Virus record (IMG/VR): IMGVR_UViG_3300028888_000003
Reading direction: 5' to 3' (one strand)
Source of the DNA: a virus
Taxonomy: Duplodnaviria; Heunggongvirae; Uroviricota; Caudoviricetes
DNA length: 64,000 bases
A program made the position numbers and the translations under genes. The notes beneath the pieces are model-generated. The model was not told where the DNA came from. It searched no databases and saw only the letters and a list, made by a program, of their open reading frames with translations. Positions 16,084 through 46,167 of the stretch are shown one piece after another (positions within the stretch are counted from its first letter, which is position 1; every line of letters starts with the position of its first letter).

Positions 16084-16204
16084 TTCTGCGCGACCGTCAT
16101 CTCGAGCGTTCATAAGCGTCACTCTTGTACGTACATAGGCGAGGTCGCCGCACAACTACAAATTTTAAACCCCTATATTTATATTTATATTTCCCCTTTA
16201 ATTA
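16084..16204 (-). ncRNA. candidate minus-strand non-coding RNA
   Basis: from minus class-B promoter 16210-16238 to terminator at 16046-16080; contains GGTCGCGCAGAA motif. Confidence 0.35.
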
Positions 16205-16209
16205 TAACA

Positions 16210-16238
16210 AAAATTTTAAAAAAAATCAAACTTTTTTC
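16210..16238 (-). promoter_or_regulatory. minus-strand class-B promoter
   Basis: rc TTGATTTTTTTTAAAATTTTTGTTATAAT. Confidence 0.5.
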
Positions 16239-16261
16239 GCAATTTTCCAGTAGTTTTTAGA

Positions 16262-16500
16262 AAAATTCTTATATTTTATCTACATATACTCGATTTTAAG
16301 GGCAATTTTTAGAAAATTCGTAGGGTTTTTCTCAAAAAAGTTATAAGTTTTACTAAATTTACCGAAAATTTACCATTTTTTTAGCGGTTTTATTCGGAAT
16401 TTTAGGAATTTTTGCCCGAAATTTTTCAAATTTTATCCGAAATTTTTAGAATTTTAAGAAAAATTTTAGATTTTTAAAATTTGCTTCATAGTGAAAATTT
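16262..16500. repeat. AT-rich degenerate tandem repeats (GAAATTTTT / CCGAAAATTT units)
   Basis: about 10 units; no ORFs. Confidence 0.55.
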
Positions 16501-16688
16501 GGCAGCAACCTAAAACTGCATTAAACGCCATCAATTCCCTTTAAACACCTTAACCCTCGAACGCTACTACCTCTGATAGTTCCAAAATTGACAGAGCCTT
16601 TCCACTCCTACCCAAGACCATTCAGTCGGCGAAACTGACCGTATGGCTCACGACGTTTTTCCCCTTTACGTTATAGTATATACTTATA

Positions 16689-16712
16689 AGTATTACTTAT
16701 ATGTATAATGTA
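16689..16712. repeat. TATACTTATAAGTATTACTTATAT direct repeat (copy 1; copy 2 at 16889-16912; palindromic core TACTTATAAGTA also at 17158)
   Basis: exact 24-bp duplication in gene-free region. Confidence 0.6.
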
Positions 16713-17295
16713 AACGTCTCCGACTCGAAATTCGGGGAGTAAGCCCCGTTTCGAATTAGTATGCTCACTACGTTCGCTTACGTTTATATATATGTATATG
16801 TAGATGTTGTTGTGATACGTTGGACTGCGCGACCACCATCGCCAGAAGTCATAACGGTTAGCTGCGCTGCCCCGTTACGTATATTTTATACTTATAAGTA
16901 TTACTTATATATTATACTTATACGTAATGGACGTATACGGCGCTTTCGGCTATCGCCGAAATCGCGGAGCGGAGCGCCCCGCTCGCTGCGTTCGCTGGAG
17001 AATTTAGACAAAAAAATGGAGCGCTTGAGCGCTCGCATTTTTCTGCAAAATTCACACAGCTCTTCTGCTTTTGGTTGTTAAGTTAGGAAGTGTTACGCTG
17101 TATCTTTACGTATATATTTTATTTATATATAATACGTATATATAATACGTATACGTAATACTTATAAGTTTTCCTTTTTGTATAAATGTGAACTTTTCTA
17201 AAAGGTTCGTATAGATTTTTCCGTCAAAATGGTAAAAATTTTTGGAATTTCTTTTACTTTGTTCTGCGCGACCATGATGGTTGATGGTGATTTAC

Positions 17296-17330
17296 CTAAA
17301 AATATAGGACAGAGTATAACTCTGTCCCGT
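17296..17330. terminator. bidirectional terminator at end of minus-strand late block
   Basis: GGACAGAGTATAACTCTGTCCCGTCTTTT. Confidence 0.6.
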
Positions 17331-17333
17331 CTT

Positions 17334-17567
17334 TTAGAAGTTATTTTCACGCTTTTCTACGACCTCGCGCAGAAGTGATTCCGGCAACTCAATAGGTCCA
17401 TCAACCCAAGCTTCAAGTTCAACACGACCTATTGCCTTTTCACCATAGTATTCACTCAACTGTTCCATAGCATCTCCAAAGCGCTCTGCATAAAGAAAAC
17501 CTGTTTTCACGTGTTGTGCATAATCAACTTCATCATAGTATTCAACTTTATAAGTAAAAGGATACAT
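17334..17567 (-). CDS. hypothetical acidic protein
   Basis: 77 aa, RBS AAGGAGGAATAAGATG. Confidence 0.55.
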   Translation of the reverse strand: MYPFTYKVEYYDEVDYAQHVKTGFLYAERFGDAMEQLSEYYGEKAIGRVELEAWVDGPIELPESLLREVVEKRENNF

Positions 17568-17578
17568 CTTATTCCTCC

Positions 17579-17902
17579 TTAATTATCTACTTCTATAAGT
17601 TCACTATCATACACATCTGTATCATAAATTTCCCAATCAGGGGCTTCAGCATAAATCATATCTCCAACCCAGTCTATAATTATATCAGTGAGACGATAGG
17701 CTTCACCAGTTTCCTTATCATAAATCATACTATCTTCCCAATCTGAAGCATATTGAAGAATATTGGCTATTGTATCATCAGACAAATCTTTAATATCTGA
17801 GTCTACAAAATTTTCTTCAAGGTATTTTCTCAGTTCATTTGTATCAATATTGTGAGTACGATAAGCAGCATATCTACCCCATTCTCTATAAGTAAGTTTC
17901 AT
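17579..17902 (-). CDS. hypothetical acidic protein
   Basis: 107 aa, RBS AGAGGAGAAATAATATG. Confidence 0.55.
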   Translation of the reverse strand: MKLTYREWGRYAAYRTHNIDTNELRKYLEENFVDSDIKDLSDDTIANILQYASDWEDSMIYDKETGEAYRLTDIIIDWVGDMIYAEAPDWEIYDTDVYDSELIEVDN

Positions 17903-17903
17903 A

Positions 17904-18689: not shown

Positions 18690-18722
18690 ATATTTTTACT
18701 TCCTTTCTTATCTTCTATAATT

Positions 18723-18751
18723 ATTATATCAAAATTTTCTAAAAAATTCAA
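18723..18751 (-). promoter_or_regulatory. class-B late promoter
   Basis: rc CTTGAATTTTTTAGAAAATTTTGATATAATAATTATAG. Confidence 0.6.
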
Positions 18752-19012
18752 GTTTTATTAGTTACCGAATTTACTACTGCGCGACCACCAAAGAAAAAGG
18801 TCATCAGACTATTATCTGATGACCACTAATTGGCTTCCACCTCTTTAACTCAGCCCCGTTGAAACTATTTTATCTGAGTGTTCTGTGCACACGGGGGCAC
18901 ATTTTATAGCCCATGCTTTTACGGCTTCGTATTGCCTAATTACGATAGGTTTCTCTTCCCAAAGGCGTCGACTCCTTACGAGGGAAGTAATCCTTGCCAA
19001 TTGTATTCAATT

Positions 19013-19757: not shown

Positions 19758-19801
19758 TATAATTCCCCTTTCTTTTATCTCTTTCTTTATCTTACATATA
19801 T

Positions 19802-19830
19802 ATTATATCAAAATTTTCTGAAAAAATCAA
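19802..19830 (-). promoter_or_regulatory. class-B late promoter
   Basis: rc TTGATTTTTTCAGAAAATTTTGATATAATATATATG. Confidence 0.6.
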
Positions 19831-20240
19831 ATTTTATAATACTATGTAATATGGTTTTTCGTACTTCCGCAGATTTCCATACCTTGTCTTTATCGTTTCG
19901 GCATATGCCATACTGCCGCACGCACCACAAACACTTCTGCTCTAAGGCGGTTTTCTCCTGACTACCGCAAACCATCTTAGGGACTTTATTTTACCTTGTC
20001 GCCCTAAGCTTCAAGGGTACCTCGCCGTATGGCTGGCTAATTTGCTGCCTGCTTTTCAGGTGGCTTTTACCATATTAAAAATATAGTTCAGCAGGAGTCT
20101 TACCACCAAGGCTTACAGACTTCCGAGGGTGTAAAACCATAAAGGTTGCCCGAAGGACTAAAACTGACCTCATTCGTTTGAATAAATAAATTTTAGCATT
20201 ACCCATCTCACGCCACGTGGAGGCAACTTACTTGTGAGAC

Positions 20241-21169: not shown

Positions 21170-21245
21170 TGGCAGAGGATACCCGACTCGAACGGATACT
21201 GTAACAGTCAAAGTGTTATGTGCTTACCAATTACACCAATCCTCT
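21170..21245 (-). tRNA. tRNA-Gln(UUG)
   Basis: AGAGGATTGGTGTAATTGGTAAGCACATAACACTTTGACTGTTACAGTATCCGTTCGAGTCGGGTATCCTCTGCCA; CCA encoded. Confidence 0.75.
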
Positions 21246-21448
21246 ATACTCGTGCGAGCGACCACCTAAAAGTTTGGACTCTCACCGTGTCTTTCGTTTT
21301 ATCTCGCATTATGGGCAGAATTTGAACCATTAACCCTGGGTCGAAGCAGTTTTATAACGACGCGTACTAAAACTTTTCTCATAAAAATACGCTACGGGAG
21401 GAATTACCGTTATTATACCGCTATTCTTAAACAGGTTTACGGCACCTC

Positions 21449-21522
21449 TGGCACCGGCTAAAGGAATTGCACCCCTATCTTCGCTTTTGGAGAGCGCTGT
21501 TCTACTGTTGAACTAAGCCGAT
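21449..21522 (-). tRNA. tRNA-Trp(CCA)
   Basis: acceptor ATCGGCT/AGCCGGT, anticodon loop CTCCAAA, CCA encoded; T-stem has two G.U pairs. Confidence 0.55.
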
Positions 21523-21634
21523 ATAAGTGGTATGGCTTTTTCAAACACGGTCCGCATTGTTAAGAGGCGCTGCTTGCTTGTCGTACCATACCGAGACACC
21601 TTACTGTATCTACGACCCACTCGCGCGAAGTGGA

Positions 21635-21708
21635 ACTTGGAGCGAGTAATGGGGATTGAACCCACGCCCTCAGTGTGGAAGACTGAAATACTACCATTAT
21701 ACTATACT
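21635..21708 (-). tRNA. tRNA-Gly(UCC)
   Basis: GCGAGTA...TCAGT CTTCCAC ACTGA...GTGGGTTCAATCCCCAT TACTCGC T CCA. Confidence 0.7.
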
Positions 21709-21711
21709 CGC

Positions 21712-21783
21712 GTATGGCGCTCCGGGTAGGACTTGAACCTACAACCATCGGCTTAACAGGCCGCTCCGCCATTGAGCTACCGA
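21712..21783 (-). tRNA. tRNA-Asn(GUU)-like
   Basis: acceptor GCTTCGG/CCGGAGC, loop CTGTTAA, T-arm GTAGGTTCAAGTCCTAC; D/anticodon stem assignment ambiguous. Confidence 0.5.
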
Positions 21784-21857
21784 AGCAAATAAGGTGGGAG
21801 GAATTACCACTATTATCACGCTCGTTTCTGAATTTACAGCCTACGCTTCGCTACCTC

Positions 21858-21933
21858 TGGTGCAAGAGATAGGGATTGAACCTATGCGACCTGGATTTTC
21901 AGTCCAGTGCTCTACCATCTGAGCTACCCTTGC
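21858..21933 (-). tRNA. tRNA-Phe(GAA)
   Basis: GCAAGGGTAGCTCAGATGGTAGAGCACTGGACTGAAAATCCAGGTCGCATAGGTTCAATCCCTATCTCTTGCACCA. Confidence 0.8.
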
Positions 21934-21997
21934 ATTTAATTTAATTGCTATTAGTAAAAACAGGAAGAACCACGTGAAGGTTGCAATTATTCTTCCC

Positions 21998-22069
21998 TGA
22001 CGTCACGGAGAATCGAACTCCGGTTTTAAGAATGAAAATCTTAGGTCCTGACCGCTAGACGATGACGCC
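21998..22069 (-). tRNA. tRNA-Glu(UUC)
   Basis: GGCGTCATCGTCTAGCGGTCAGGACCTAAGATTTTCATTCTTAAAACCGGAGTTCGATTCTCCGTGACGTCA. Confidence 0.7.
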
Positions 22070-22554
22070 ATATTTCTGGAGTGCGGTGTTTTCTATGCAA
22101 CCAGATTATTCCGCACCAGTTAGGTGGTTTTTAGGAAATTTTTCCTTGTGACCGCCAAACACAAAGTTTGTTTAGAAGGCAGTTGCATCTTTGTCGCCTC
22201 GAAGCATAGTCGACTATCAGCGCTTCTATACAGATAAGTTTAACTGACATTCTGCTTGGTCAGCACTACCTATAATCGTCATTATTATTAGTGCTCTGTA
22301 TTTTATTTAACGACTTTGACAGTTCCCAGTCGGGTCCCAACATTTATATAGCGTGTAGTTCCGAATACCGCTTTTCTGAGGTTTAACGACCTTTTCAGAT
22401 ATTGGTCGGACTCAGTCATTTATATAGCGCCTACCAACTACGTCAGCGCTGCAAGTTTACTTTGCCTTCTTTTATAGCGTTTGCCACTTATGCCACATAT
22501 CACGACCGCGCCTCGTGCCGATGGTAGTTGAACTTGCAAATCCATGTTAACGCT

Positions 22555-22629
22555 TGGTTGCAGAGGTGGGAATCGAACCCACGTTGTCCAGTTTATGAGG
22601 CTGGACAGGTAACCAACAACCTCTCTGCC
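22555..22629 (-). tRNA. tRNA-Met/Ile2(CAU)-like
   Basis: T-arm GTGGGTTCGATTCCCAC, 3' CTCTGCA-A-CCA, anticodon loop CTCATAA; 5' acceptor/D-arm pairing imperfect. Confidence 0.45.
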
Positions 22630-23730: not shown

Positions 23731-23940
23731 AATTAAAACCTCCTTTAGTTTCTAATTATAAGTAACTTTATTAGGCATACACTACAAATTTTTAATGCGT
23801 CTGCCAAAGTCCGTTGCGTCTGCCTATTCCGCCACACTCCCATATGTATAAAAGGTTATTACTACTGTCTAACTACTTACAGGATTCCCTATTATCCAAG
23901 CCTTTTATAAAAGTAATTTCTTTTCTCATTTACTATAATA

Positions 23941-23969
23941 ATTATAGCACAATTTTATAAAAATTTCAA
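23941..23969 (-). promoter_or_regulatory. class-B late promoter
   Basis: rc TTGAAATTTTTATAAAATTGTGCTATAAT. Confidence 0.55.
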
Positions 23970-23975
23970 ATTTTA

Positions 23976-24646: not shown

Positions 24647-24701
24647 TTTATATATCTATCCTTTCTTTTTCTTTTTCTTTCTTTCTTTATCTTACATATA
24701 T

Positions 24702-24730
24702 ATTATATCAAAATTTTTAAAAAATTTCAA
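24702..24730 (-). promoter_or_regulatory. class-B late promoter
   Basis: rc TTGAAATTTTTTAAAAATTTTGATATAATATATATG. Confidence 0.6.
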
Positions 24731-24784
24731 GTTTTAGTAGAAAAAGAAAAGACAGCAGTTAAACTGCTGTCTAATTCTTTTTTA

Positions 24785-25900
24785 TCATTCAAAATCCCAA
24801 TTAAATAAATTTTTCAAGAAATTATTAAATCCACTCCAAAAATCAGCAAATTTACCCTATAAATATTCATGTAATGAATTTACTTTACTCAATAAAGTAT
24901 CATATTTTTCCTTAATAGGAAAAGCTAATTCTATTTTACCAGTAGTAATTGTACTTATTAAAGCATCTATATTGTCTGGAATATGATTATTATCATCATC
25001 ATTAAAATCAAAAATTTTATTCCATTTTTCCTAATCAAATAATGCACCAAATACACTACCTAAAATACCACCTATTCCTTTAAAGAAATTAACGATCATA
25101 TCCCAAAGTAACTATAATAAGGTTTTATGCTCAACTGCAGCAGCATTACCATCTCCGAGTTCATCTACATAAATTACAGGAATATTATCTCCCCAAAATT
25201 CCAATAATCCCGCTAATTCTTCTGTAGCTAGCCATTTTCCAATTTTTTTACTAAAATAAAATTCACCTACTTTATCTGGAAAATTGATAAGACCATAAAA
25301 TTCTTTAATAACAGCAAGCTCAGTATTTAATTCATCTTTAGAAACAGTATACCATTTAATACCATTACGTGGACGATATACTTCAATAAAATCTATTTTA
25401 TCATATAATTTTTTTAAATTTCTTTTTTTTACATCTCTGTATTTTTCATCTCCGTCTCGCGCGGTGCCTGGAATACATCTACATATTCTTGTTATTAAAA
25501 TATTTTTAGTATAAGTTGTAAAATCTATTGAACTATTTATTCCGAATCGCTCTTTGAATTCAGTAAGATTAGAAACTCCAAACCTATTTTCTAAAGTTTG
25601 CTAACTCATTGATCTTAATTCAGCTGGAGTTAATTCTTCATAATAAAACATATAAAAATTAACAATATGATTTGGAAATTTATGCATCATATTCTATGCT
25701 TTTATATAAGCATCACTTGAATGTGCAAAAAGTTCTGCATCATCCTATATATCTAAATCAGTATAGTATAATTCAAGTTTATTTTGAGTAATATCTGTAT
25801 TATTATTAGGAGTTTGGATAAAATCTGCACCTTTGACATGACTAATTGGATTACCTTTTTCATCTAAAGAAACATCTTTTCTATTAATAGGATCACTCAT
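24785..25900 (-). CDS. hypothetical protein (~371 aa) containing ~7 in-frame TAG codons
   Basis: RBS AAAGAGGTGATTAACTAATG; MSDPINRKDVSLDEKG...DLDI-TAG-DDAELF...IKA-TAG-NMMHKF...; ends TGA at 24785. Confidence 0.5.
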
Positions 25901-26874
25901 TAGTTAATCACCTCTTTAGTTTCAGGTTCAAATTCAATAAATTCCCATTTGTTAGTCTATTTATTATATGCATACCAACCCTCTTCAACAGGTAATTTAA
26001 AACTAAATACTTTATTTACTAATCTTAATGTTCTTCTAAATTCATATGGGGCTATATGCTCATATAATATATTTCCATCTTTATCATGTACTATCTACCC
26101 CTATTCATCTTTTACTGGAATTTTTTGACCATTATTATTTAATTTTTCTGGCCTATAAATTTTACAATATAATGAACAATTATATAAATGCTAATTAATC
26201 ATTGTGGCATCTTTCCATGGCGCACCTTGGGCTTCTGATTGTGATACCCAAAGTTTATATAAATCGTTTAATTGTTTTACATTCATATCAGAATATGATT
26301 TATTATCCATATCTCGACAAGATGCAACATCTTTAATATACGCGCTTTTAGTAGGTAATTTTTCTATTTTTTTGTTATTACCAGTAGCTACTAATGCTTC
26401 AAACTGTTTCTATGTAATATTGGTAAATTTATATTTACTGCCAGTTGTAATAACATTGGGAACTTCTTGTGTACCTATATCAACTTCAAAAGAATAATCT
26501 TGTGGATTTGTATTTATATATTTTGGAATATAAAATTCTATATAGTCTTGAGCTTCTTTTGGTAATACTTGCTCAAAAGAAAAATGATACTCTATTACTT
26601 TTGCATATGCTTGAGCTATATTTCTGTTAGTAATTCTAGTATCATCTACAACCAAAACTCCATTGTCAATATTATCTGGGGTCACACCATCCGTTTTAAA
26701 ATGTATATTGTATGTAAAATGTTCTGTTGGATTATAAGTAGAATAAAAATATCCCTAACTATAAAGCGGGTTTGGAATATTCATAGCGTATTCTATAATT
26801 AATTCGCCAGATTCATCATGTATAGTTCTACTTTCTATACTACTAATTGTAGGACATACTTTAATCTCCGCCAT
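25900..26874 (-). CDS. hypothetical protein (~325 aa) with multiple in-frame TAG codons
   Basis: RBS AAGGAGGGAGAGAAATG; MAEIKVCPTISS...; ORF-track fragment 26410-26685 belongs to it. Confidence 0.45.
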
Positions 26875-28333: not shown

Positions 28334-28897
28334 TCAAAGAAAGGTTTTACATTCTTCTACTTTTACTTTCATATCTTTGATTGCATCGTCAAGCAATACA
28401 GGGGTACAATTATGAGAATCCATACCTACGTGATATATAAAGGGCATTTCATTATAAAAATTGGTCTTTTGATGGGTATGTCCATACAGATTAATCAAAC
28501 AATTATGTAAAGAATTGCTATCAAAATTCGCAGTCATACTGGGATAATGAGAAAGATAAAAATGATATTTTTTATACTTGATAATTGTAGCATAATTTAC
28601 TTCAACTATATTATCAAGGTCTTCAACATACATTTGTTCTCGAGCGGCGCTGTCATGGTTACCAAGAATCACATGAATATAACCATTCAGTCGTGCGATA
28701 CAACTTTTACCATATTCTTTATCTCCAAGGGTTAAATCACCAAGCAGATAAACATCATCATCTTTATCTACAACTGAGTTCCAACGTTCAATTATTGCCT
28801 CATCGTGTTCTTCAATAGAATTAAAACCGCGAGGCTTATACAGAAATTCACGATCATGACCGAAATGTGTGTCGCTCGTTACGAAGATTCTCCCTGC
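28334..28897 (-). CDS. calcineurin-like metallophosphoesterase
   Basis: DTHFGH, GDLTLGD, GNHD motifs; start at MAGRIFV after AAAGGAGTAATAGT. Confidence 0.65.
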   Translation of the reverse strand, partial: AGRIFVTSDTHFGHDREFLYKPRGFNSIEEHDEAIIERWNSVVDKDDDVYLLGDLTLGDKEYGKSCIARLNGYIHVILGNHDSAAREQMYVEDLDNIVEVNYATIIKYKKYHFYLSHYPSMTANFDSNSLHNCLINLYGHTHQKTNFYNEMPFIYHVGMDSHNCTPVLLDDAIKDMKVKVEECKTFL

Positions 28898-28913
28898 CAT
28901 ACTATTACTCCTT

Positions 28914-29157: not shown

Positions 29158-29200
29158 GTTTAGACCACCACAGTATGTACTTCTGCGGCGGTCCGAAATT

Positions 29201-35088: not shown

Positions 35089-35529
35089 TTAGTCTTCAGA
35101 AGATAATGATTTAAGAATTTTCTCATAATCATCATTTATAACTGCTTTGAAATAATGCGTACAATATGTTGAGTCAAAAGTATCTGTTATATGCTCTAAA
35201 AATAAACTGCTAAATCTTTCTTCCCAATCTTTTGCACCACAATATACATAGTTGGAACCTTCATCTTCATATCCCATACCACAATCACCACACCTTGTAT
35301 GAATATAAATAACATCTTGTCCAGCATATTTATTGAACACTTCAAATTCTTCATTATAATATTCATCTTGTTCTACAGGTGATTCAATTTTCATAAATCT
35401 TGCGCCACGAAGTCTTGGTATTTCACCATAGTTTTCTGCTAAATATTTACCTATCATTTCATCTGTTGACTGTAAATAAGCATATAAATCCATATTATTT
35501 CTCCTTTCGTACTTCTGCGCGACCACCAT
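35089..35529 (-). CDS. hypothetical protein
   Basis: 146 aa; RBS AAAGGAGAAATAATATG; GGTCGCGCAGAAGTACG motif in its 5' UTR. Confidence 0.55.
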   Translation of the reverse strand: MVVAQKYERRNNMDLYAYLQSTDEMIGKYLAENYGEIPRLRGARFMKIESPVEQDEYYNEEFEVFNKYAGQDVIYIHTRCGDCGMGYEDEGSNYVYCGAKDWEERFSSLFLEHITDTFDSTYCTHYFKAVINDDYEKILKSLSSED

Positions 35530-35628
35530 CGGGGATGGTCATCAGCCATATTTTCCAGACCTGATGACCATCAGGCATCGCAGTCGCGCACTACAACATA
35601 TTAAACTTCTTCCTTAATCTCTAATATA

Positions 35629-35657
35629 ATTATACTATAAATTTATAAAAAAATCAA
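35629..35657 (-). promoter_or_regulatory. class-B late promoter
   Basis: rc TTGATTTTTTTATAAATTTATAGTATAATTATATTAG. Confidence 0.6.
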
Positions 35658-35691
35658 ATTTGAGAGGCATTTGTAAATACCTCTCAAACTC

Positions 35692-36459: not shown

Positions 36460-36498
36460 TTATATAATTGCCATCGTTCGGTTCATTCTTCCTTCACT

Positions 36499-36527
36499 TT
36501 CTATATATATTATATCAAAATTTTTTT
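36499..36527 (-). promoter_or_regulatory. class-B late promoter (TTGCAA -35)
   Basis: rc TTGCAAAATTAAAAAAATTTTGATATAATATATATAG. Confidence 0.55.
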
Positions 36528-36540
36528 AATTTTGCAAATT

Positions 36541-37030
36541 TTAAATTGTCTTTCTTAATAATGCTCTTAAAGAGTTTGCAAAATTAAAAATAGTTTTATA
36601 ATCAAAAGCTATTTTAACCCATGTTTTTTCTGCCATTAAGTTTTTTACTTCATTCCAAATTGGCTCAGTCGGATACGTAGTATTCGTTTTAATAGAAGAT
36701 TTCTCTTTTCTTTTAGTTTCCCATACTTCTCTTCCACCTAACCAAGGCTCTACTTCTATATTAACTAAGCCACTACCACGAGTAGCTGAAAAAATTGTAT
36801 TCGATGCCTCTAATAATAAATCTGATAATAGCATATAATATCCATTTATATTATATATATGTATAGTGCCATCTGTACCATTAGCACGAAACATCTGTTC
36901 AATATCATCGAACATCCAAGCTGCCGCAATCTAAGCCAACTATTCTTTAGCAGCCTCTAATTGTCCTGTTTCTACTCCATTGGCTATATTAAAAATAATT
37001 GCATTTAAATTACCAGAACTAATACCCATT
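36541..37030 (-). CDS. hypothetical protein with 2 in-frame TAG
   Basis: MGISSGNLNAIIFNIANGVETGQLEAAKE-TAG-LA-TAG-IAAAWMFDDIEQ... Confidence 0.4.
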
Positions 37031-37461
37031 TTTTCAATATTTTTCTATAATCTCTAATCTATTAAACGTAAATTACCGCTACCTATTTGAATATTATTTA
37101 AGCTACCATAGTCTTTTGCACTAATAGCTAATAACCAACCATTTGGACCAACTGCAGTCTATAACTAGTCTGCTTCAATTTTCATCTTCTTCATTAGATT
37201 ATCTATTGCTTCTATATCCATTTCATCGGATATAGTAATTGTTGCTCTTGCGCGATCTATTACTTCTACGTCTGCTTTTCCTTCTTTTATACCAACTGCT
37301 GCAACGTCTTGCTTTTTTATGTGTAGTTTTGTATCCATAAATTCTCCAGCTATATTATATTCCAATGGAATACCCAATAAAACATTATTGATTATACTAT
37401 CAATTTGCTATCTTACGGTTTTTCCACTTCCATGATTATTAATAGTAGTTTGTAAAAGCTA

Positions 37462-38121
37462 CTAATTTATTGGAGCAAAAAGTCCCGTATTTTCATCATA
37501 CCAACCTTTTGGAGCATTCTTTTGAAAGGAACTTTTTAAACGATTAAAAATTTCTTTGTATAGATTCCATTTTTTATTAACAGTGGTATTATTAAAAACT
37601 TTTTCTTCTAAGAAAGCATTAATATAATCGTCTATTGTTTTTGTTATTCCAAGATTAGACCAGCCGCCGCCTCTTTTATTTTCAACAAAATCTTTTTTTA
37701 GTTGCTCTGCTAAATAATCGCCAAATTTACGACCATAAACTCCACTACTTTTTAAGGCTCCTCGATCTTTATCATAATTTTTAACAAGTTCTTCTAATGC
37801 TTGTTTTCTTTTAATTAGCAAATTTATAATAGCTGATAGTTTACCGCTACCATCTTGATTTAATATTGTTATAATTTGCGATTGTAAGTCTGAGTCTTCT
37901 GGTAAGAGAGCTAATTTATTTATTATATAATTAGTTTCTTTAGTGCGTTCTGCATTAGCTAATTTAGAAAGTACTGAACTTAATTCTGCTAATTCTTTGT
38001 TCAGTTGATTTTCATTTCCCATACGAGCACTTACTTTGTTTGCATAAGGGTTGGTTGTATCAGAAAAGATTACGTATTTATCAGAAACCCACTTGGCAGT
38101 ATTAAAATATTTAGTACCCAT
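37462..38121 (-). CDS. hypothetical protein
   Basis: 219 aa. Confidence 0.5.
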   Translation of the reverse strand: MGTKYFNTAKWVSDKYVIFSDTTNPYANKVSARMGNENQLNKELAELSSVLSKLANAERTKETNYIINKLALLPEDSDLQSQIITILNQDGSGKLSAIINLLIKRKQALEELVKNYDKDRGALKSSGVYGRKFGDYLAEQLKKDFVENKRGGGWSNLGITKTIDDYINAFLEEKVFNNTTVNKKWNLYKEIFNRLKSSFQKNAPKGWYDENTGLFAPIN

Positions 38122-38196
38122 AAGTATACCTCCAAAAATCTATTTCTCCAATTAAAAGTAAAAAAGAGCAGACAACTGTCTACTCTTTCAACTATT

Positions 38197-38391
38197 TTAC
38201 TTCTCTATCGGCTTAAACTCTTCATAATCCCCAAAAGCCACATTCCGCCTATCCGAGTTCTGCGCCCATACATAGTTTAAAATTATAAGATTTTCTTCTC
38301 GTGAGAGCATTACTACGTAGTTATTTTTAATTAGGCTTTCAGCTACGTTCGTAGCGTCCCACATTTCGCTAAAAGCAAGTTCGTTTTTCAT
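38197..38391 (-). CDS. small protein paralogous to N-terminus of 26949..27362
   Basis: 64 aa. Confidence 0.5.
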   Translation of the reverse strand: MKNELAFSEMWDATNVAESLIKNNYVVMLSREENLIILNYVWAQNSDRRNVAFGDYEEFKPIEK

Positions 38392-38423
38392 TTTTATTCT
38401 CCTCTCTTTTTTATTTTATTATA

Positions 38424-38453
38424 ATTATAGCAGATTTTTTAGAATTTTTCAAA
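38424..38453 (-). promoter_or_regulatory. class-B late promoter
   Basis: rc TTGAAAAATTCTAAAAAATCTGCTATAATTATAAT. Confidence 0.55.
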
Positions 38454-38488
38454 TTTTAAAAGAGCAGATTTCTCTGCTCTTTTATTTT

Positions 38489-38995
38489 TTATTCAAATAC
38501 AACGCTCAAAGTAAGTGTTGCTATATAATTGTTCTCAGCGTTTAAAGTAATAGGTGAATCAAGAATGTAGGCATATAAGAGATGCTCTTTTGCGTTCGCA
38601 CCACCGCCTGACCCTGTATATACATTCCGAACAAGCAGAAGTGAATTTACTGTTTCGTCTTGCAATTCTGATCCTGTAATTGTTATATTAGCAATCCACC
38701 CTGTATTGTCAGCATTAGCGGTATAAGTCACAACACAATTGCCCACTTGATTGGTGATAGTTGATTTGTCAAACGCAGCACTTGAATCGCTCGATGCGTA
38801 AGGAAACAAATAATTTTGACCACTCGTTGAATAAGCCGTTCCCCAAGTGGCAGTAAAACACAAGGTTGGGTATTGAGTATAATTATTTGCTACTGCTAAT
38901 GTTTCTCCGTTCGTTGATGTGATTTGCAAATATTTCTTTATGTTTACAGCAATATCTACCTTCGCCGCATTTTGCAACTGTATAAGCTGTCCCAT
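38489..38995 (-). CDS. fibre-tip module protein B (copy 1); paralog of 44304..44810
   Basis: 168 aa, shared ...PYASS...NQVGNC...GW.ANITI.G......NS.L....Y.....YILD.PI.LNAENNY.A.LT.SV.F. Confidence 0.55.
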   Translation of the reverse strand: MGQLIQLQNAAKVDIAVNIKKYLQITSTNGETLAVANNYTQYPTLCFTATWGTAYSTSGQNYLFPYASSDSSAAFDKSTITNQVGNCVVTYTANADNTGWIANITITGSELQDETVNSLLLVRNVYTGSGGGANAKEHLLYAYILDSPITLNAENNYIATLTLSVVFE

Positions 38996-39222
38996 TATAT
39001 AGCACCTCCGTTATATTCTGCTGTAACTGTTATGAACGGATAAATCTTAATCGGATAAAACACACCATCTGTTCCGCCTCCAGTTGCCGCAGTACCTGTA
39101 ACAACCGTGCCATCATTCAAATGCCCAACCTTCCCACTCGCAATATCGTTCGCAGAAACCACAGTATCAGTACTCAAATCAATCAAAGTAGCACTATCAA
39201 AAGTAACTTTATTAACCGCCAT
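38995..39222 (-). CDS. fibre-tip module protein A (copy 1); paralog of 44807..45046
   Basis: 75 aa; V.FDS.TLIDL..DTV.S.NDIASGKVGHLNDG.VVTGTA.TGGGTDG. Confidence 0.55.
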   Translation of the reverse strand: MAVNKVTFDSATLIDLSTDTVVSANDIASGKVGHLNDGTVVTGTAATGGGTDGVFYPIKIYPFITVTAEYNGGAI

Positions 39223-39244
39223 TTCCCGGTACCTCCGCTACTAA

Positions 39245-41026
39245 TACGTTATAGGTTGTGGTTACACCACTGTCGGTTATTACGAGGGGTTTTAGTACGA
39301 CATTATATTCAACGCCGTTAATTGTTGCCTTTCCTTTTGATTCTTTCGTGGTATCAGGCATACTTACGATTTCTTCTATTGCGAAGCATTGGCGACTATT
39401 TAAATTTATACATCTCGCTTTAACAAGAGCACCTTTAGGAATTGTTTGTGCTAATGGATTGTATAACCAACCAGTACCATTTATACCATTCTATTCAAAT
39501 ACTACAATTGAGTTATTTGTTCTGTCAAAAGTTGTAATACCGTTATCTGTAGATATATCAACATTTTTACTCGATCCTAATTCAGCAGGAGTATAAAACT
39601 ATACATAGTGATAATTATATTGTAAATCATTAACCTAAGAACTATCTATAATATTGTTGCTATTAAGGTCATATACATAGACAGTTTCATTATTATAGGT
39701 AGTTGTATTTACAAAACTTAGCTGAATAGGATGGTCTTTATAATAATCTACTAAGTGTCCAATATTAGTATGATTATAGCTATATGCTATCGGAGTTCTA
39801 TTCTGGAGAATTACATACTCATTATTTCCAATAGAATAGTCGTAGTCAAAAATCCTATAAATGGCATTGTTATCTGGATAGCTAAATGTTGATGTTGCTG
39901 CGCCAGTGTGGTTAATTAATACTACTCTATTTTTAATAGGAACACAAACATTTCCATTAGGTTTATTGGTCCGTTCATAGGACCAGCTATCTTTCCAACC
40001 AGAACTCGTATTTGTTAATTCAAAACTTGGCTTCCAACTATTTAAATATCTAGAACCATTTGGAGTTAACTCTATAACGATATCATTGTCATCGTATTCT
40101 GGTGCGTCAATATCATCATAATCATTTACCTTTTCCCAACAGAAATCTTCTTCTCTAATTAGTTGGACTGTTATATAGCGTTTAGTAGAATTTAATCGAT
40201 CTGTTACTGTAAAAGGTTCTGATAACACTTTAAAATAATATGTATTACCTGATTCTAAATAATTGTAAGTAGCCACACTAAAGGCAGACTCTTCAATAGT
40301 ATTATACATTCTTTTTGATAAATTTTTAATAAAATCTATTCCCAAATGCTGGCTATTCAATTCTTCTTCAGTAAATTGAGTTAAAAGACAAGTTGTAGTA
40401 GTACCATTCACTTTACAGTCTATTGTAGGACTATAGCTAAGATGAATATTATCAAGAATAGATATTACGCCATCTTCATGACAAGATATATAATCCATAC
40501 GTTTATTGGTTCCATTGCCAATGGGAATGGTAATATATTTATTTACTAAAGCAGATCCAGTATAACTACTAATATAAGAATTTGCAATTAATCCAACAGT
40601 ATTGGCTAAAGTTTGTAAACTACGACCAGTTTTTAGGCTATCGTTATATTTATATAATGTACCTTTCCCTAAATAGTTTTGCTTAAAATATAAATCACCA
40701 TCTTTAGGAACTTCGCGAATAAATTCACTATCCGAAAATACTCTTGGTGTATATTTAGCTTCTGCTTTGAGTGCTAAATTTTTATCAATTTCTGCTTTAT
40801 TTTGTAATAATTCTACTTTTTTACTTAATTCTAATCTTTTATAATTTTCATCTGTTGATAAAGAAATAGCAGAAATTTGAAAAGCACTATCTAATCTATG
40901 TATCTGACATGAAGTATCAATTGGTAAATTAATACAAATATGAACAGAAAAAGTTGTTTCAGTAGATAAATCAATTTCAGCAACGAATGATTCTTCAACG
41001 TTTTCATCATTATAATTTATACTCAT
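39245..41026 (-). CDS. large structural protein; TAG at 39635 read through (3' end approximate)
   Basis: 463-aa ORF-track piece 39635-41026 ends in TAG and the frame continues. Confidence 0.4.
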
Positions 41027-41039
41027 TCTGTGCCTTATA

Positions 41040-41737
41040 AGCCCTATAGTCTAGTTTTCTTTTTTGAGACTGCGGTATGCATTAAAAGATTCAAAATTCT
41101 TATCTATATGATATGAAATCAATTTTTGTGAAAACCAATCAGTTATCTCTTCAAAAGAAGGTATAAAAACAGCGCGATCAATTTCTTCAGTAATAATTTC
41201 ATTGCTCTCAATCGTCTAAACTAATATAGTTTTATTTTCAAGAGTGCTAAAATATGAGCTGGTCCAATTACTAATAGTCTAATCTAATTCGCCATTTTTA
41301 TAACCAGTAGAAGCAAAACCGTGTCCATTCATAGTAAATTCAAGCTAATCCAATGAAAGTAAAGTAATGCTATTTTTATTATCTACTATCATAAAATGAG
41401 TATCTTGTCCGTTAAAATCTGCTGTTAAACAAGTACCTAAAGGTAATAATTTTAAATAAACGCCGTCTGAAGAATAGGGTGAATCATTATGAGAATTAAC
41501 GACTGCTAATTTTACAGAAGAATCAATCGTAGGGTTTTTATACGTATTGTAAAAATCAATTTCATTTGGTACATCATTAATTGTAATTTTTGTATTGAGT
41601 ACGTTACGTATAGTATTTAATTTGCTATTTACAGATGAAGATAACTGCTCCATCTTATTGTCGCTTTCTGTTTTTGTATATATATTTCTTTTTAATGCAT
41701 CTATAATCGTTTTAAAATTATCTTTTAAGGTTGCCAT
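41040..41737 (-). CDS. hypothetical structural protein (TAG at 41345 read through; end approximate)
   Basis: ORF-track 41345-41737 ends in TAG. Confidence 0.35.
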
Positions 41738-42800: not shown

Positions 42801-43100
42801 TTAATAATATAAAATATAAGCGTCTCCTAATGAATGGGTGCCTGTTTCACCATCACCTGCAAGTCGCCACTCACCGAGCTCTTCGTCGTATAAATATGTT
42901 CCATTTGGATCTTCTACATAGTCTTGATAAATAAGCACATAGGTTTCGGCTCTGTGAGTACCTGTTTCGTTCTCACCCGCAAGCCTCCACTCACCAAGCT
43001 CATCATCATACAAATAATCTCCATTTGGATCTTCAATATAGTCCGTATATTCTACGCCTGGAGTTTCAATTAAACCTGTTTCAGCAAGTACTTCAAGCAT
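42801..43100 (-). CDS. tandem-repeat protein
   Basis: two copies of YxxDYVEDPNG.YLYD.ELGEWRLAG..ETGTH. Confidence 0.5.
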   Translation of the reverse strand: MLEVLAETGLIETPGVEYTDYIEDPNGDYLYDDELGEWRLAGENETGTHRAETYVLIYQDYVEDPNGTYLYDEELGEWRLAGDGETGTHSLGDAYILYY

Positions 43101-43175
43101 TTCTTCAGCCTCTAATGAAGATTCAGGGGCTGGTGCATTCTCAAGAACGGTTACTCTACCGTCAAGACTAAGAAT

Positions 43176-43745
43176 CTATGAGTCAGTAGCAAGATGAAGA
43201 TCGGCCGCTGATGCCAGTTCCCAAGCACCCAGTTCATCAACCGCAAGAACCTTGCCAGTATCTAAATTTGTATGTCGTGGAAAACTATTTACAACTATTT
43301 TTTCTTCATTAGTATAATCATTGGTACTAAATCCTTTATCTATCGTTATCGTACTTAAGTGTTTACCACCATCAATTGAATAGCAATGCAAAGATATATC
43401 TACTGGATTAGAAGTTGCATCTTCTATTATAGTAATTAATTTTAATAATCCGCCACCTTTATCAATACTTATAACAACGTCTCCAAAAATACTAAAAAGT
43501 GCTCCTTCAGCCCATAAATCCTCTATTTGTTTTATAGTATATACCGAATAATCACTATTAGTACTATCTGCAATTTCGAGTCTAGTTTTATTAGTATCTA
43601 CAATTTTTATATAATTACTACCAGACCATCTATATGTGGTATTATGCTCTAAATCAACATAAATTTTCCCTGTCTCACCAGTAATTTTAGTTGTTAATGC
43701 ATTAGTTGTGTAAAAGGCATTATTACTATAGTACCCTTCAATCAC
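43176..43745 (-). CDS. hypothetical structural protein
   Basis: 189 aa. Confidence 0.5.
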   Translation of the reverse strand: MIEGYYSNNAFYTTNALTTKITGETGKIYVDLEHNTTYRWSGSNYIKIVDTNKTRLEIADSTNSDYSVYTIKQIEDLWAEGALFSIFGDVVISIDKGGGLLKLITIIEDATSNPVDISLHCYSIDGGKHLSTITIDKGFSTNDYTNEEKIVVNSFPRHTNLDTGKVLAVDELGAWELASAADLHLATDS

Positions 43746-43766
43746 ATCGTCTACATACGAAGGTAA

Positions 43767-44168
43767 CTAAGCGGCGGGAACTTTACCATTAATCAAATCA
43801 GCTTTTGCACTTGCTACTGTGACTTCGTCCCATTTAGTGTCATCAAAATCTCCAGCTGGTGAAGTGATATTAGCTTTAGCACGATACATTTTATCATCGT
43901 AAATTGCTAATTCATTTACATCATATCCACTTTCTGGATTATAGACTGGAGCAATCATTTCTGTAGAAGCTCCGCCGCCTCCACCACCTGTTGGATAGAC
44001 GAACCACTCATTTTCTGAATTTAATATATAGGTAATTCCATCTTCAATAACTAAGCATAAGTCGCCAAAGTATGCTTTTAAATTATCTCGTTCTTCTGCT
44101 GTATTACATATATAGGTTTTTTGCGGTACATTAAAGGAATTACCTACTTTAATTAGTTTTGTAGACAT
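43767..44168 (-). CDS. hypothetical protein with poly-Gly segment
   Basis: 133 aa; RBS AAAAGGGAGGCGATAAAATG. Confidence 0.5.
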   Translation of the reverse strand: MSTKLIKVGNSFNVPQKTYICNTAEERDNLKAYFGDLCLVIEDGITYILNSENEWFVYPTGGGGGGASTEMIAPVYNPESGYDVNELAIYDDKMYRAKANITSPAGDFDDTKWDEVTVASAKADLINGKVPAA

Positions 44169-44303
44169 TTTATCGCCTCCCTTTTAGTTTTTATATTGTA
44201 CGTTGTTCTGCGCGACCGCCATCGAGAATGGTTATCAGATTTTTTTGAAAAATCTTATGAGCGTCGTCCATCGAAGTCGCGCGGAAGTACGTATTTAAGA
44301 TTT

Positions 44304-44810
44304 TTATCCAAATGATACGCTCATAGTGAGGTTTGCTGTATAGTTGTTTTCTGCATTTAATTCAATCGGTGCATCGAGAATGTAGGCGAAAAGAAGACAT
44401 TCATAATAGTTGCTACTCGCATACAGTTTTTTTGTAAACAGAATCGAGTTCACCGTTGCATCTTGATTTCCAATAATTGTAATGTTTGCATCCCATCCCT
44501 TGTTATCACCCGTTCTTGTGAACGCTATTGTACAGTTGCCGACTTGATTCGGAATTGATGTTTGGGAATAAGGAATGGAAGTGTTAGAGGAAGCATAAGG
44601 AAAAGGATTACCATCACTTGCACTTGTCTTTGTTGTTCCTGTTTGGTATACATAAAACGCTCCTGCAACCGTTACTTGTTTTCCGCTTATAGCATCTTGA
44701 AGATTTCGTTGCGTTCCATTAAGATCAAGTACAGTAATATTACTGCTTCCCAAGTTTGAGATATTAACCTTATCAAAATTAATAAATTTTTGAAACTGTC
44801 CCATAATCAC
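44304..44810 (-). CDS. fibre-tip module protein B (copy 2)
   Basis: paralog of 38489..38995. Confidence 0.55.
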   Translation of the reverse strand: MIMGQFQKFINFDKVNISNLGSSNITVLDLNGTQRNLQDAISGKQVTVAGAFYVYQTGTTKTSASDGNPFPYASSNTSIPYSQTSIPNQVGNCTIAFTRTGDNKGWDANITIIGNQDATVNSILFTKKLYASSNYYECLLFAYILDAPIELNAENNYTANLTMSVSFG

Positions 44811-45046
44811 ACCTCATTACCATTGTATGTCATTGTTATTGTCGGCATAATCAACGCCGTAGGATTCATCGGGAAAAACTGCCCATCTGTTCCGCCGCCT
44901 GTTTGAGCAGTACCCGTCACAACACTACCATCATTCAAATGCCCAACCTTCCCACTCGCAATATCATTAGTAGAAGCAACAGTATCGCCCGTCAAATCTA
45001 TAAGCGTTGTACTATCAAAAGCGACTTTACTAATCGCCATTTTCAC
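44807..45046 (-). CDS. fibre-tip module protein A (copy 2)
   Basis: paralog of 38995..39222. Confidence 0.55.
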   Translation of the reverse strand: MKMAISKVAFDSTTLIDLTGDTVASTNDIASGKVGHLNDGSVVTGTAQTGGGTDGQFFPMNPTALIMPTITMTYNGNEV

Positions 45047-45184
45047 ACCCCCTAAAAATAAAATAGCAAATAATAAATGATATATTTACCTAATCTTATG
45101 TAATTTTTTAAACTTTGTACTATACAATTTCCATACACATAACAGCGCGACCGCCATCAAAAGTAATGATGACGGTCGTAAAAA

Positions 45185-45628
45185 TCATTCAAAAAAGTAG
45201 ATTTCATCCCAGCCTTCTTCTTCAGTCGGCTCGCAAAAATTCTTAAACATGCGTTCAAGCACGTCTTCTGGAACTACTCTTTCTCTATTCTGATTTCTCT
45301 TCTTAGCCTCTTCTAACGGAGTTTTTAAAACCAAAGCTATTTTAAATCCACGATTAAACGGTTCAATAAATCTCAACAAATTAATACGATTTTTTCTTGA
45401 AATATTAGTTGCATCAAATATTACATTTCTATGATAATACAAAGCGTCCTTAATTCTATCATAAGCAACTTCAAATACTTCTTTATTCTTAACCTGTATT
45501 GTCTCATCTCCAAATAATTCTTTCCGTATCTCGTCAGTAGAAACAATTACAGCATTATATCTTTTAGCATACTCTTTAGCAAGAACTGACTTGCCGGATC
45601 CGGGTATACCAACCATACAAATAAACAA
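45185..45628 (-). CDS. P-loop kinase (polynucleotide-kinase-like)
   Basis: Walker A GIPGSGKS, 147 aa. Confidence 0.55.
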   Translation of the reverse strand: MFICMVGIPGSGKSVLAKEYAKRYNAVIVSTDEIRKELFGDETIQVKNKEVFEVAYDRIKDALYYHRNVIFDATNISRKNRINLLRFIEPFNRGFKIALVLKTPLEEAKKRNQNRERVVPEDVLERMFKNFCEPTEEEGWDEIYFFE

Positions 45629-45643
45629 GTTAATTCTCCTTTC

Positions 45644-46036
45644 TTAATCCCATAAACTATTCCAATTATTCTTAAACCAATCAAATACAGCTTCTCTCGC
45701 AATACTAGCCTCTTCATCAGCATCTTCCCAAGCGGCGCGACCAATATCTTTATCCCAATCTATACAATTATCAGGATTAAACTTCTCAATTAAATCAGCA
45801 ATATTGTTCAACTGTACTTGCCAATTTTCAAATGTATCAAAACCACCGGGATACCCAGAGGCATTTTTAGCAAAGTCTCTTAACCCTTTACTTAAAACTT
45901 TTTCTAAATAAGTATCAAAATTCCAAAGGTCGCAATCTGCATAGCCACGTTTGCCTCTCTGAATAAACCATTTAATTTTACGAGGAATATATTTAATTTC
46001 ATAAAAGAATTCTCTAATTTTATACCATTTAATCAT
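45644..46036 (-). CDS. hypothetical protein
   Basis: 130 aa. Confidence 0.5.
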   Translation of the reverse strand: MIKWYKIREFFYEIKYIPRKIKWFIQRGKRGYADCDLWNFDTYLEKVLSKGLRDFAKNASGYPGGFDTFENWQVQLNNIADLIEKFNPDNCIDWDKDIGRAAWEDADEEASIAREAVFDWFKNNWNSLWD

Positions 46037-46066
46037 AGCAATTTCTCCTTTTTATTTTCTAATAAA

Positions 46067-46095
46067 ATTATACTAAAAATTTCTAAAAATTTCAA
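46067..46095 (-). promoter_or_regulatory. class-B late promoter preceded by terminator + GGTCGCGCAGAAGTACG motif
   Basis: rc TTGAAATTTTTAGAAATTTTTAGTATAAT. Confidence 0.55.
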
Positions 46096-46167
46096 GTTTT
46101 ACGTACTTCTGCGCGACCGCCAAAAAAATCGCTCATGGCAGACACCATGAGCGACTCAAATTATTTC

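Follow-up and report, generated by a model that had tools for sequence, protein, structure and literature searches.

Intergenic hairpin repeats are a means by which several model phages punctuate, stabilize, or silence long transcripts, and they give mosaic genomes a route for module exchange. Phage T7 (sites R0.3-R18.5) and the early RNA of Bacillus phage SP82 provide RNase III sites in polycistronic mRNAs, where cleavage splits the message into cistrons, sets its 5′ ends, and leaves a hairpin that protects the 3′ end; among bacterial repeats, the miniature inverted-repeat elements Correia/NEMIS and ERIC are co-transcribed, and RNase III or RNase E cuts the transcripts. Further described repeats are the promoter-early stem-loop (PeSL) cassettes of T4-type phages (PMC2839356, PMC4122927); the start-associated sequences (SAS) of Cluster K mycobacteriophages, which include the ribosome-binding site, and the extended start-associated sequences (ESAS), with repeats of 17 bp and spacers of 4-13 bp (PMC3203893); the stoperators of Cluster A mycobacteriophages, 13-bp sites that lack an inverted partner or hairpin and of which a genome has about 25-35 (PMC9283540); and SPBRE, the operator of the SPbeta master repressor MrpR (PMC10516654). 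Stoperators reportedly vary with phage subcluster (PMC6550527), and ESAS repeats do likewise (PMC3203893). Here, we describe a repeat family in a 64,000-nucleotide stretch of the IMG/VR virus record IMGVR_UViG_3300028888_000003 (the window), in which a recurring 12-mer forms the invariant core of one arm, the downstream one, of an imperfect, hairpin-forming palindrome of ~97 nt.

The 12-mer TTCTGCGCGACC occurs five times in exact form (16084, 17262, 35513, 44206, and 46107), always reading in this form on the plus strand, compared with 0.00 copies expected in shuffled sequences; allowing up to two mismatches gives 14 matches (1.4 expected), and the 8-mer core TGCGCGAC has 10 occurrences (0.34 expected). 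Flank alignment and profile searching identify eight homologous copies in the window, which we name by position: the five exact copies together with 16823 (GACTGCGCGACC, two mismatches to the 12-mer), 18775 (TACTGCGCGACC, one mismatch), and 45143 (three mismatches), the inexact copies having been called homologous from their flanks (GATGGYGGTCGCGC...). Non-coding sequence makes up ~15% of the window and contains all eight (P about 2e-7), and repeat copies have a G+C content of 42-58%, compared with 34% for the genome. A ninth copy, which is full length, lies ~420 nt left of the window on the plus strand of a plus-strand-transcribed region (L332:9066-9150), and no copies beyond these nine are present in the 73.5 kb over which repeat copies were surveyed. 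A previous sequence-only reading of this DNA listed at least nine intergenic sites, of which the eight homologous copies stand, all of them non-coding, and the site at 29181 falls away as a separate hairpin; of its positions, 16822, 35512, and 44205 were each 1 nt out and 18768 was 7 nt out. Scanned against gene positions, the motif is far above chance, non-coding, and co-oriented with transcription.

The arms of the palindrome, ATACGTACTTCTGCGCGAC... and ...GTCGCGCAGAAGTACGTAT, are each ~25 nt long, with consensus sequences on the transcribed strand of ATACGTAC(TT)CTGCGCGAC[YK]CGATG for the 5′ arm and CGATGG[YG]GTCGCGCAG(AA)GTACGTAT for the 3′ arm. The cores GCGCGAC and GTCGCGC are invariant, the ends are ATACGTA and run into palindromic TACGTA, and the center of the element is itself a hairpin, best kept as TGATGGTCATCAG...CTGATGACCATC. 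At four independent loci (the 35513 group, 44206, L211:3431, and L211:1012) the cores are 59 nt apart, with shorter spacings of 49 nt in the left-of-window copy and 40 nt in L208:401. Full copies fold better than shuffled sequences (z = -2.7 to -7.6) and can each form a long interrupted stem of ~30 bp, with a lower stem of 11-17 bp and an upper stem of 9-13 bp. Long hairpins had been drawn previously at 35513 and 44206, and both are borne out by their folding scores (Table 1); the inner stem that had been assigned to both is perfect at 35513 only, being degenerate at 44206. The arms differ from each other, the 5′ arm in reverse complement being CATCGMRGTCGCGC (CATCGMRGTC) and the 3′ arm GATGGYGGTCGCGC (GATGGYGGTC), and therefore the element has a defined orientation; because this difference is consistent, there is one good site per element. 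Truncated copies keep the downstream arm in five of five cases.

The orientation of the element is locked to transcription. Genes of the window are on the plus strand up to ~16 kb and on the minus strand from 17.3 kb onward; throughout the minus-strand-transcribed region all copies are on the minus strand, and the copy at L332:9066-9150, in a plus-strand operon, is on the plus strand, as is its orthologue in L460. Orientation relative to transcription is identical in 12 of 12 copies and on both transcription arms, such that the GATGGYGGTC arm is downstream with respect to transcription in every copy, full or truncated. The uniform orientation reported earlier holds for the copies in the window, and orientation flips where the direction of transcription flips. 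Copies are found only in non-coding spacers that are transcribed: ~35 nt downstream of sigma-A-type promoters, directly after stop codons, and 8-70 nt upstream of ribosome-binding sites; three independent copies (35513, 16084, and L208:401) follow a promoter at a distance of 35-45 nt and precede a ribosome-binding site or a terminator, and others lie between cistrons. There is no promoter inside the repeat at 35513, 44206, 45143, 16823, or the left-of-window copy.

Because location, orientation, and shape fit, with both promoter-proximal and intercistronic copies, we tentatively propose that the element is most likely a co-transcribed hairpin that punctuates mRNA, serving as a double-stranded-RNA processing or 3′-end signal of the type seen in T7 and SP82. 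In this proposal, the element in mRNA would be a substrate for a double-strand-specific endonuclease (host RNase III), and cleavage would separate cistrons, set 5′ ends, and leave a protective 3′ hairpin. Some copies would have lost the upstream arm, with the inner hairpin and linker becoming an intrinsic terminator, and the family would have spread through duplication and recombination along with gene modules. Among the functions suggested by the sequence-only reading, a processing or RNase site is the best-fitting, given the long interrupted hairpins, the positions in 5′ untranslated regions or between cistrons, and the co-orientation, although structural covariation is weak.

The individual copies illustrate these arrangements (Table 1). 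The 35513 element stands between a sigma-A-type promoter (35627-35661) and the ribosome-binding site of a gene starting at 35487. The 44206 element, 70% identical to it, comes after the stop codon of gene 44304-44810 and ahead of the ribosome-binding site of a tail-fibre-like gene (42801-44168). The 45143 hairpin is built from the inner parts of the arms and directly follows the stop codon of an AAA_33 kinase-like gene (45185-45628). The 16084 copy lies ~35 nt downstream of a promoter (16201-16229) and is followed by a hairpin (16040-16076), forming a small-RNA-like unit without an open reading frame. The 5′ partner of the 17262 arm falls within the terminal part of coding sequence 17334-17567, and between the paired arms are the stop codon and a terminator (17306-17328); the arm duplex (-19.1 kcal/mol) is equalled by 5% of shuffles, and since the upstream partner is inside coding sequence the pairing would be selected rather than a by-product of insertion.

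Table 1. Copies of the repeat in the window, the unrelated hairpin near 29181, and the sigma-A-type promoters
Feature	Coordinates	Strand	Details
35513, canonical full element	35504..35601	-	minimum free energy -43.6 kcal/mol; z = -5.6
35513, 5′ arm core TGCGCGAC	35583-35590	-	
35513, 3′ arm GATGGTGGTCGCGCAGAAGTACG	35504-35530	-	
35513, inner hairpin GGTCATCAG.../...CTGATGACC			13 bp, after the 5′ arm core
44206, canonical full element	44197..44294	-	cores 59 nt apart; degenerate inner stem; z = -4.8
45143, short form	45133..45182	-	12-bp hairpin ACGACCGTCATCA/TGATGGCGGTCG, then CGCTGTTATG; z = -5.9
46107, solo 3′ arm	46098..46123	-	TTGGCGGTCGCGCAGAAGTACGTAAA
18775, solo 3′ arm	18769..18790	-	TGGTGGTCGCGCAGTAGTAAAT
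17262, 3′ arm with 5′ partner	17253..17376	-	3′ arm ATCATGGTCGCGCAGAACAAAGTAAA (17253-17278); 5′ partner ACTTCTGCGCGAGG (17363-17376)
16823, intact 3′ arm with degenerate 5′ arm	16815..16885	-	3′ arm GATGGTGGTCGCGCAGTCCAACGTAT (16815-16840); 5′ arm ACGTAACGGGGCAGCGCAGC; inside conserved non-coding zone
16084, full divergent copy	16075..16162	-	5′ arm GTAGTTGTGCGGCGACC; 3′ arm GATGACGGTCGCGCAGAACAACATAAG; z = -2.7
29181, separate hairpin, not of the family	29162..29194	-	GGACCGCCGCAG-AAGTACATA-CTGTGGTGGTC; 11-12 bp
Sigma-A-type promoters	16199-16233, 18721-18755, 19800-19834, 23939-23973, 24700-24734, 29127-29161		conserved spacer AAACTTGAWTTTTTTAGAAAATTTTGATATAAT
Sigma-A-type promoters	31473-31507, 35627-35661, 36474-36542, 38389-38457, 46065-46099, 49109-49143		conserved spacer AAACTTGAWTTTTTTAGAAAATTTTGATATAAT

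Two copies consist of a 3′ arm only. The 46107 arm follows the U-run of an intrinsic terminator (46122-46157) and lies ~8 nt upstream of the -35 hexamer of promoter 46065-46099; the 18775 arm lies 9 nt after a terminator hairpin (18799-18824) and is followed by promoter 18723-18751. This order of terminator, motif, and promoter had been recognized at both sites and is correct there, but the generalization that the motif usually precedes a promoter applies to only two of the eight family copies. The 18775 terminator has as its stem an exact match to the inner stem of the 35513 element (GGTCATCAG/CTGATGACC), and its U-rich 9-nt linker has the same length as the element linker ATCCCCGAT; the stem of the 46107 terminator has GCTCATG in common with the inner stems of other copies. 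Because these stems and the linker match the element interior, both would be elements that lack the 5′ arm and in which the inner hairpin is now a terminator, and this conversion ties the family to RNA 3′-end formation. A search for distant upstream pairing partners of the two solo arms found no significant one, and neither copy has a double-stranded stem of two turns.

The hairpin at 29181, previously counted as a variant, has only GCAGAAGTACATA in common with the family, in its stem end and loop, and matches the 3′-arm profile only at E = 4.5 (expectation value). It lies after the RNA ligase gene and upstream of promoter 29127-29161, and shows two fully compensatory pair changes between the window and L208. 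What the sequence-only reading missed is that the motif is a palindrome arm, that the terminator-side copies are truncated, that orientation tracks transcription, and that 29181 is different.

The window carries a tRNA cluster and is 100% identical to part of a 139,084-bp ENA metagenome contig (ERZ27257205 k141_6637418), 84 kb of which was covered in the searches for absent genes. We find no near match to the region among GenBank phages; DNA just left of the window codes for YonB-, YonD-, and YonG-type virion proteins, and the phage is SPbeta-like on that basis. Contigs of relatives, collected by way of the RNA ligase, a methyltransferase-like protein, PhoH, and a small early protein, derive from sheep-rumen-type metagenomes. 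The family is a repeat of a clade of uncultured ~139-kb SPbeta-like rumen phages that appear to recode TAG.

Among the relatives, copies are conserved at orthologous sites in at least seven metagenomic contigs. The 35513 element is kept almost base for base in L205, L208, and L211, better than its flanks; the genes beside it are diverged or unrelated in these contigs, and the element is an island in L205 and L211. The 18775 copy is kept in L205, L208/L334, and L336 (as variant GATCGCGCAC), and the spacer behind it drifts. In L334, the 16084, 16823, and 17262 copies are kept within a 90%-identical zone, with 17262 identical, the 3′ arm of 16823 conserved, and three one-sided substitutions at 16084 that keep the pairs. 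The orthologue of 45143 in L189 (4583-4631) is nearer the consensus (GATGGCGGTCGCGCAGTTGTACGTAC). Genome-specific motif variants occur at two sites in L336 (GATCGCGCAC and AATCGCGCAC) and at two sites in L461 (ACCATCTCGCGC), and there are extra copies at non-orthologous places (L208:401, L211:1012, and L211:3431).

Missing from L189 are genes 44304-45046, along with element 44206, and a small LPXTG-like gene (46161-46475), along with its terminator and the 46107 motif; every presence/absence difference between relatives also involves neighbouring genes. We note that a two-gene module on the minus strand is duplicated (38486-39224 and 44301-45042, 78-80% identity), with a terminator and promoter after one copy and element 44206 after the second, which L189 lacks. 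The 46161-46475 gene, also on the minus strand, codes for a small secreted-type protein with TDAT-type repeats, a VPDTG sorting-signal-like C-terminus, and one in-frame TAG.

The family is confined to this narrow group. Homologous regions of distant relatives with PhoH 63% or 54% identical contain no copy, and a search of the distant relative L066 for an analogous palindrome family found none. In Rfam, only tRNAs of the window pass the gathering score, and nothing relevant is found around the elements at E <= 5; GenBank phages have no match to the element. Scans of IMG/VR and of GTDB genomes for the motif or for both arms gave, among the matches listed, single chance occurrences located in G+C-rich contigs or coding sequence, with no host or foreign copies among them, although matches in low-G+C sequence may be under-represented in these listings. 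Among the matches listed, then, there is no counterpart of the family in Rfam or in any sequence collection searched.

Three of the copies fall in a 1.3-kb non-coding zone (16000-17330) where the transcription arms converge and which is 90% identical to L334, above its neighbouring genes. Counterparts of the zone are at L334:11340-12720, L336:3817-4180, and L461:10314-10830, and the type of repeat differs between relatives; in the window, the repeats are TATAAGTAnTACTTATA palindromes, TACGTA/ACGTATACGTA units, and AAAATTTCGG/AAAATTCC units. Possible roles of the zone are those of an origin, of a site for packaging, or of a partition-type site.

If the element acts as RNA, its pairing might be expected to leave a trace in the substitutions, and here the evidence is divided. 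Of the one-sided changes between orthologues, eight to nine leave the sense-strand pair in place as G-U and one breaks a pair, and a comparison of L332 with L460 shows one compensatory change (C-G to U-A) in the inner hairpin. Several results weigh against the punctuation hairpin. The orthologue count is biased by ascertainment, because repeating the analysis on the antisense strand likewise recovers antisense-preserving changes; when the arms are compared in a strand-neutral mirror test, the G-U mismatches number 18 of sense type and 27 of antisense type, and four independent copies fold better as antisense. In an alifold analysis of seven canonical copies, one of 29 pairs covaries (covariation term +2.1), and several inner-stem pairs are broken among paralogues, the structure being kept by sequence identity and not by compensation. 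The cores, at 7-8 bp, are invariant in sequence beyond the needs of a structural signal; truncated copies always retain the downstream arm, conserved without a pairing partner, which a pure hairpin model does not explain; copies directly after terminators would rarely be transcribed; and no RNase III gene is seen in the 84 kb of contig. The hairpin thus comes from a palindromic ancestor, with no demonstrable maintenance through compensatory change.

A serious rival, though in our view rather doubtful, is that the downstream arm (GGYGGTCGCGCAGAAGTACGTA) is instead an asymmetric recognition site for a putative phage-specific trans-acting factor, acting on DNA or RNA. On DNA, the site would be an orientation-dependent roadblock or repressor site, like mycobacteriophage stoperators; on RNA, it would combine a hairpin with a linear box, like nut sites or SAS/ESAS, with the upstream arm a mere partner or modulator. 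Such a factor would account for an orientation locked to transcription on both transcription arms, the invariant core sequence, and the retention of the downstream arm in all truncated copies, including 18775, which is conserved without a partner while the adjacent spacer drifts. It also accords with there being only one good site per element, with consistently different arms, and with the genome-specific variants common to two sites in L336 and L461. However, no candidate binding protein is named, most copies have a long inverted partner and inner hairpin that would be superfluous for a double-stranded-DNA site, the spacing between the arms is not phased with the DNA helix, and the evidence for concerted change comes from two sites each in two short contigs only. 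A narrower version, in which a co-evolving phage-encoded factor reads the downstream arm, with a single motif variant in each genome and an orientation locked to transcription, as part of genome-wide stoperator- or nut-like transcription control in TAG-recoding SPbeta-like rumen phages, we judge unlikely, and a promoter for a YonO-class single-subunit RNA polymerase less likely again. If a factor does read the arm, the variants specific to each genome would suggest that these phages have an immunity-like specificity system.

The sequence-only reading also raised the possibility of a small mobile repeat; in this second serious rival, viable though in our view improbable, the family would be a selfish or neutral palindromic repeat resembling miniature inverted-repeat transposable elements, or a linker for homologous recombination like the PeSLs of T4, with no dedicated function. 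The 25-nt terminal inverted repeats, the fixed canonical length, and the deletion derivatives with 49 and 40 nt between cores are as such repeats would have, as are the copies of relatives at non-orthologous places, with the two extra L211 copies having near-perfect arms, as young copies would; paralogues decay uncompensated, their mismatches are without strand bias, and the family is limited to a narrow clade. Copies also lie at indel edges and mosaic junctions (44206 with genes 44304-45046, 46107 with its small gene, and the 35513 island), although this association is weak evidence because mosaic junctions are ubiquitous in these genomes. Against mobility, orientation is alike in 12 of 12 copies, and retention of only the downstream arm is unexpected under neutral decay. 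The flanks of seven copies have no consistent target-site duplication (the palindromic TACGTA ends cannot be scored), no presence/absence polymorphism of the element alone was found, and the 84 kb of contig contains no transposase, recombinase, or integrase gene. Orthologous copies are moreover conserved as well as, or better than, neighbouring genes.

A role as a DNA hairpin for replication or packaging, such as an origin-linked single-strand initiation signal whose orientation follows the replication fork, is very unlikely. Three copies are inside the 1.3-kb iteron-rich non-coding zone, more similar to L334 than the neighbouring genes, the ATACGTA ends resemble the TACGTA repeats enriched in that zone and in its L461 counterpart, orientation flips at the zone, and the hairpins are equally good on either strand; but transcription converges and cumulative GC skew peaks there (16.0-17.3 kb), which is more terminus- than origin-like, copies outside the zone keep to gene boundaries, ribosome-binding sites, and terminators, and no replication protein is linked to the element.

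We give equally little weight to a DNA transcription signal, either an upstream activator of sigma-A-type promoters or a promoter for a YonO-type phage RNA polymerase (whose promoter was still unknown in 2017; PMC5467207): the motif is asymmetric, ~25 bp, upstream of genes, and co-oriented in an SPbeta-like phage (YonB, YonD, and YonG domains), and two copies are directly upstream of promoters, but the distance to the -35 hexamer varies (~8 and ~22 nt), most copies are downstream of promoters or far from any, some lying between genes without a promoter, three have no downstream gene, a single late promoter serves YonO in SPbeta, where no similar motif occurs, and no RNA polymerase gene is seen in the window. 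The activator site for late promoters, which had been among the earlier suggestions, was rejected because its spacing and position are variable.

Several features of the surrounding DNA merit description in their own right. A ~180-nt non-coding stretch on the minus strand between a stop codon and the 18775 terminator (18826-19005) is nearly invariant in four phages, with variation confined to predicted loops; its predicted fold is closed by a long-range stem (AATTGGC/GCCAATT), it has no Rfam match, and it may be a structured non-coding RNA. On the plus strand at 15117-15588 are three ~85-nt tandem repeats, in each of which a strong promoter accompanies the leader AGAAAGTGAGAGAGAAAT; short non-coding sequences rich in G+C come after the first two repeats, one such sequence containing GGTCGCGCGGAG (15395), which is also in L334, and these units may be small RNAs. 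RNA-repair-like genes (28334-30322, 45185-45628, 46488-47321, and 49136-49858) code for a T4 Rnl1-type RNA ligase, metallophosphoesterases, an AAA_33 kinase-like protein, and PhoH, alongside eight tRNA genes (21170-22629 and 48450-48526); L461, a more distant relative, carries RtcB instead.

Open reading frames of 324-1822 amino acids on the minus strand (24785-26874, 36541-38151, 39212-41737, 42801-44168, 46161-46475, and 53764-63810 being the genes with TAG read-through) exist only if TAG is read through, with 2-20 in-frame TAG codons each, and match stored gene calls. The TAG-containing subset is long and mostly structural-looking, and the PhoH and RNA ligase genes have no in-frame TAG. In the tail-fibre-like gene, TAG falls at GKVPAA*LPSYVDDV, a position at which related fibre proteins presumably have glutamine. 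TAG appears to be translated in this gene subset, probably as glutamine; there is no suppressor tRNA among the eight tRNAs of the window.

The element invites comparison with several described systems, among them the RNase III sites of T7 and SP82. In those phages and here there are about ten sequence-related interrupted stem-loops, intergenic and in the sense of transcription, with one between early promoters and the first gene and others between cistrons. The elements described here differ in having no sequence or Rfam relationship to those sites, in being near-perfect ~97-nt palindromes with an invariant GCGCGAC core, and in the persistence of half-copies beside terminators, and RNase III processing is only putative here. 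With Correia/NEMIS and ERIC, they share a length of ~100 bp, inverted arms of ~25 nt, gene-adjacent positions, an mRNA hairpin, deletion variants, and a patchy distribution among close relatives; unlike those elements, they are phage-borne and strictly oriented, and neither a TA target duplication nor a cognate transposase was detected in the 84 kb read.

PeSLs and these elements are both short repeated composite regulatory sequences at indel edges between close relatives, and the repeats flank indels between the window and L189, in genomes where mosaic junctions are ubiquitous. At 18775 and 46107 the order is PeSL-like, with a stem-loop terminator, the motif, and a conserved early-type promoter. 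Unlike PeSLs, most copies are promoterless, the repeat unit is a palindrome, and the conserved promoters are a separate, larger repeat family (at least 12 members).

SPBRE repeats, like these elements, are intergenic and transcription-oriented in SPbeta-type phages, but SPBRE, a 15-bp sequence, is AT-rich ACAAATACAAATAATATGTATA when re-derived from NC_001884 and is promoter-embedded, overlapping the promoter spacer, whereas the motif here is GC-rich and variable in position; the window counterpart of SPBRE is likely the conserved promoter family and not the GC-rich motif. The SPbeta genome has no GGTCGCGCAG-like repeat, and a YonO promoter or SPbeta yonK leader was rejected since SPbeta is without a related GC motif; the shared TTGTACGTAAA is not significant because GTACGTAA occurs four times in SPbeta. 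A cassette site like the attC of integrons, which stands at the 3′ end of cassettes beside an intI/attI platform, was likewise rejected: the cores are GCGCGAC/GTCGCGC here and RYYYAAC/GTTRRRY there, the left junction of the 44304-45046 insertion is ~75 nt outside the neighbouring element, and no integrase is seen in the 84 kb read.

SAS/ESAS and this motif are asymmetric, near gene starts, and in a single orientation, with imperfect inverted repeats in about half, a variable spacer, conservation at orthologous genes, and a consensus that differs by sub-lineage; unlike SAS/ESAS, the elements here have arms of ~25 nt with 40-59 nt between them, and their motif stands apart from the ribosome-binding site. 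Stoperators and this motif are both asymmetric, occupy short intergenic sites in one orientation on both genome arms, and show lineage-dependent variation, but unlike stoperators most copies here have an inverted partner and inner hairpin.

Together, the copies mark transcription-unit boundaries and gene-module junctions, and the family gives a handle of the kind that hairpin repeats have given in model phages on uncultured ~139-kb SPbeta-like, apparently TAG-recoding rumen phages. It is a real, well-delimited family that belongs in kind with the known intergenic hairpin repeats of phages, and is not a new mechanism.

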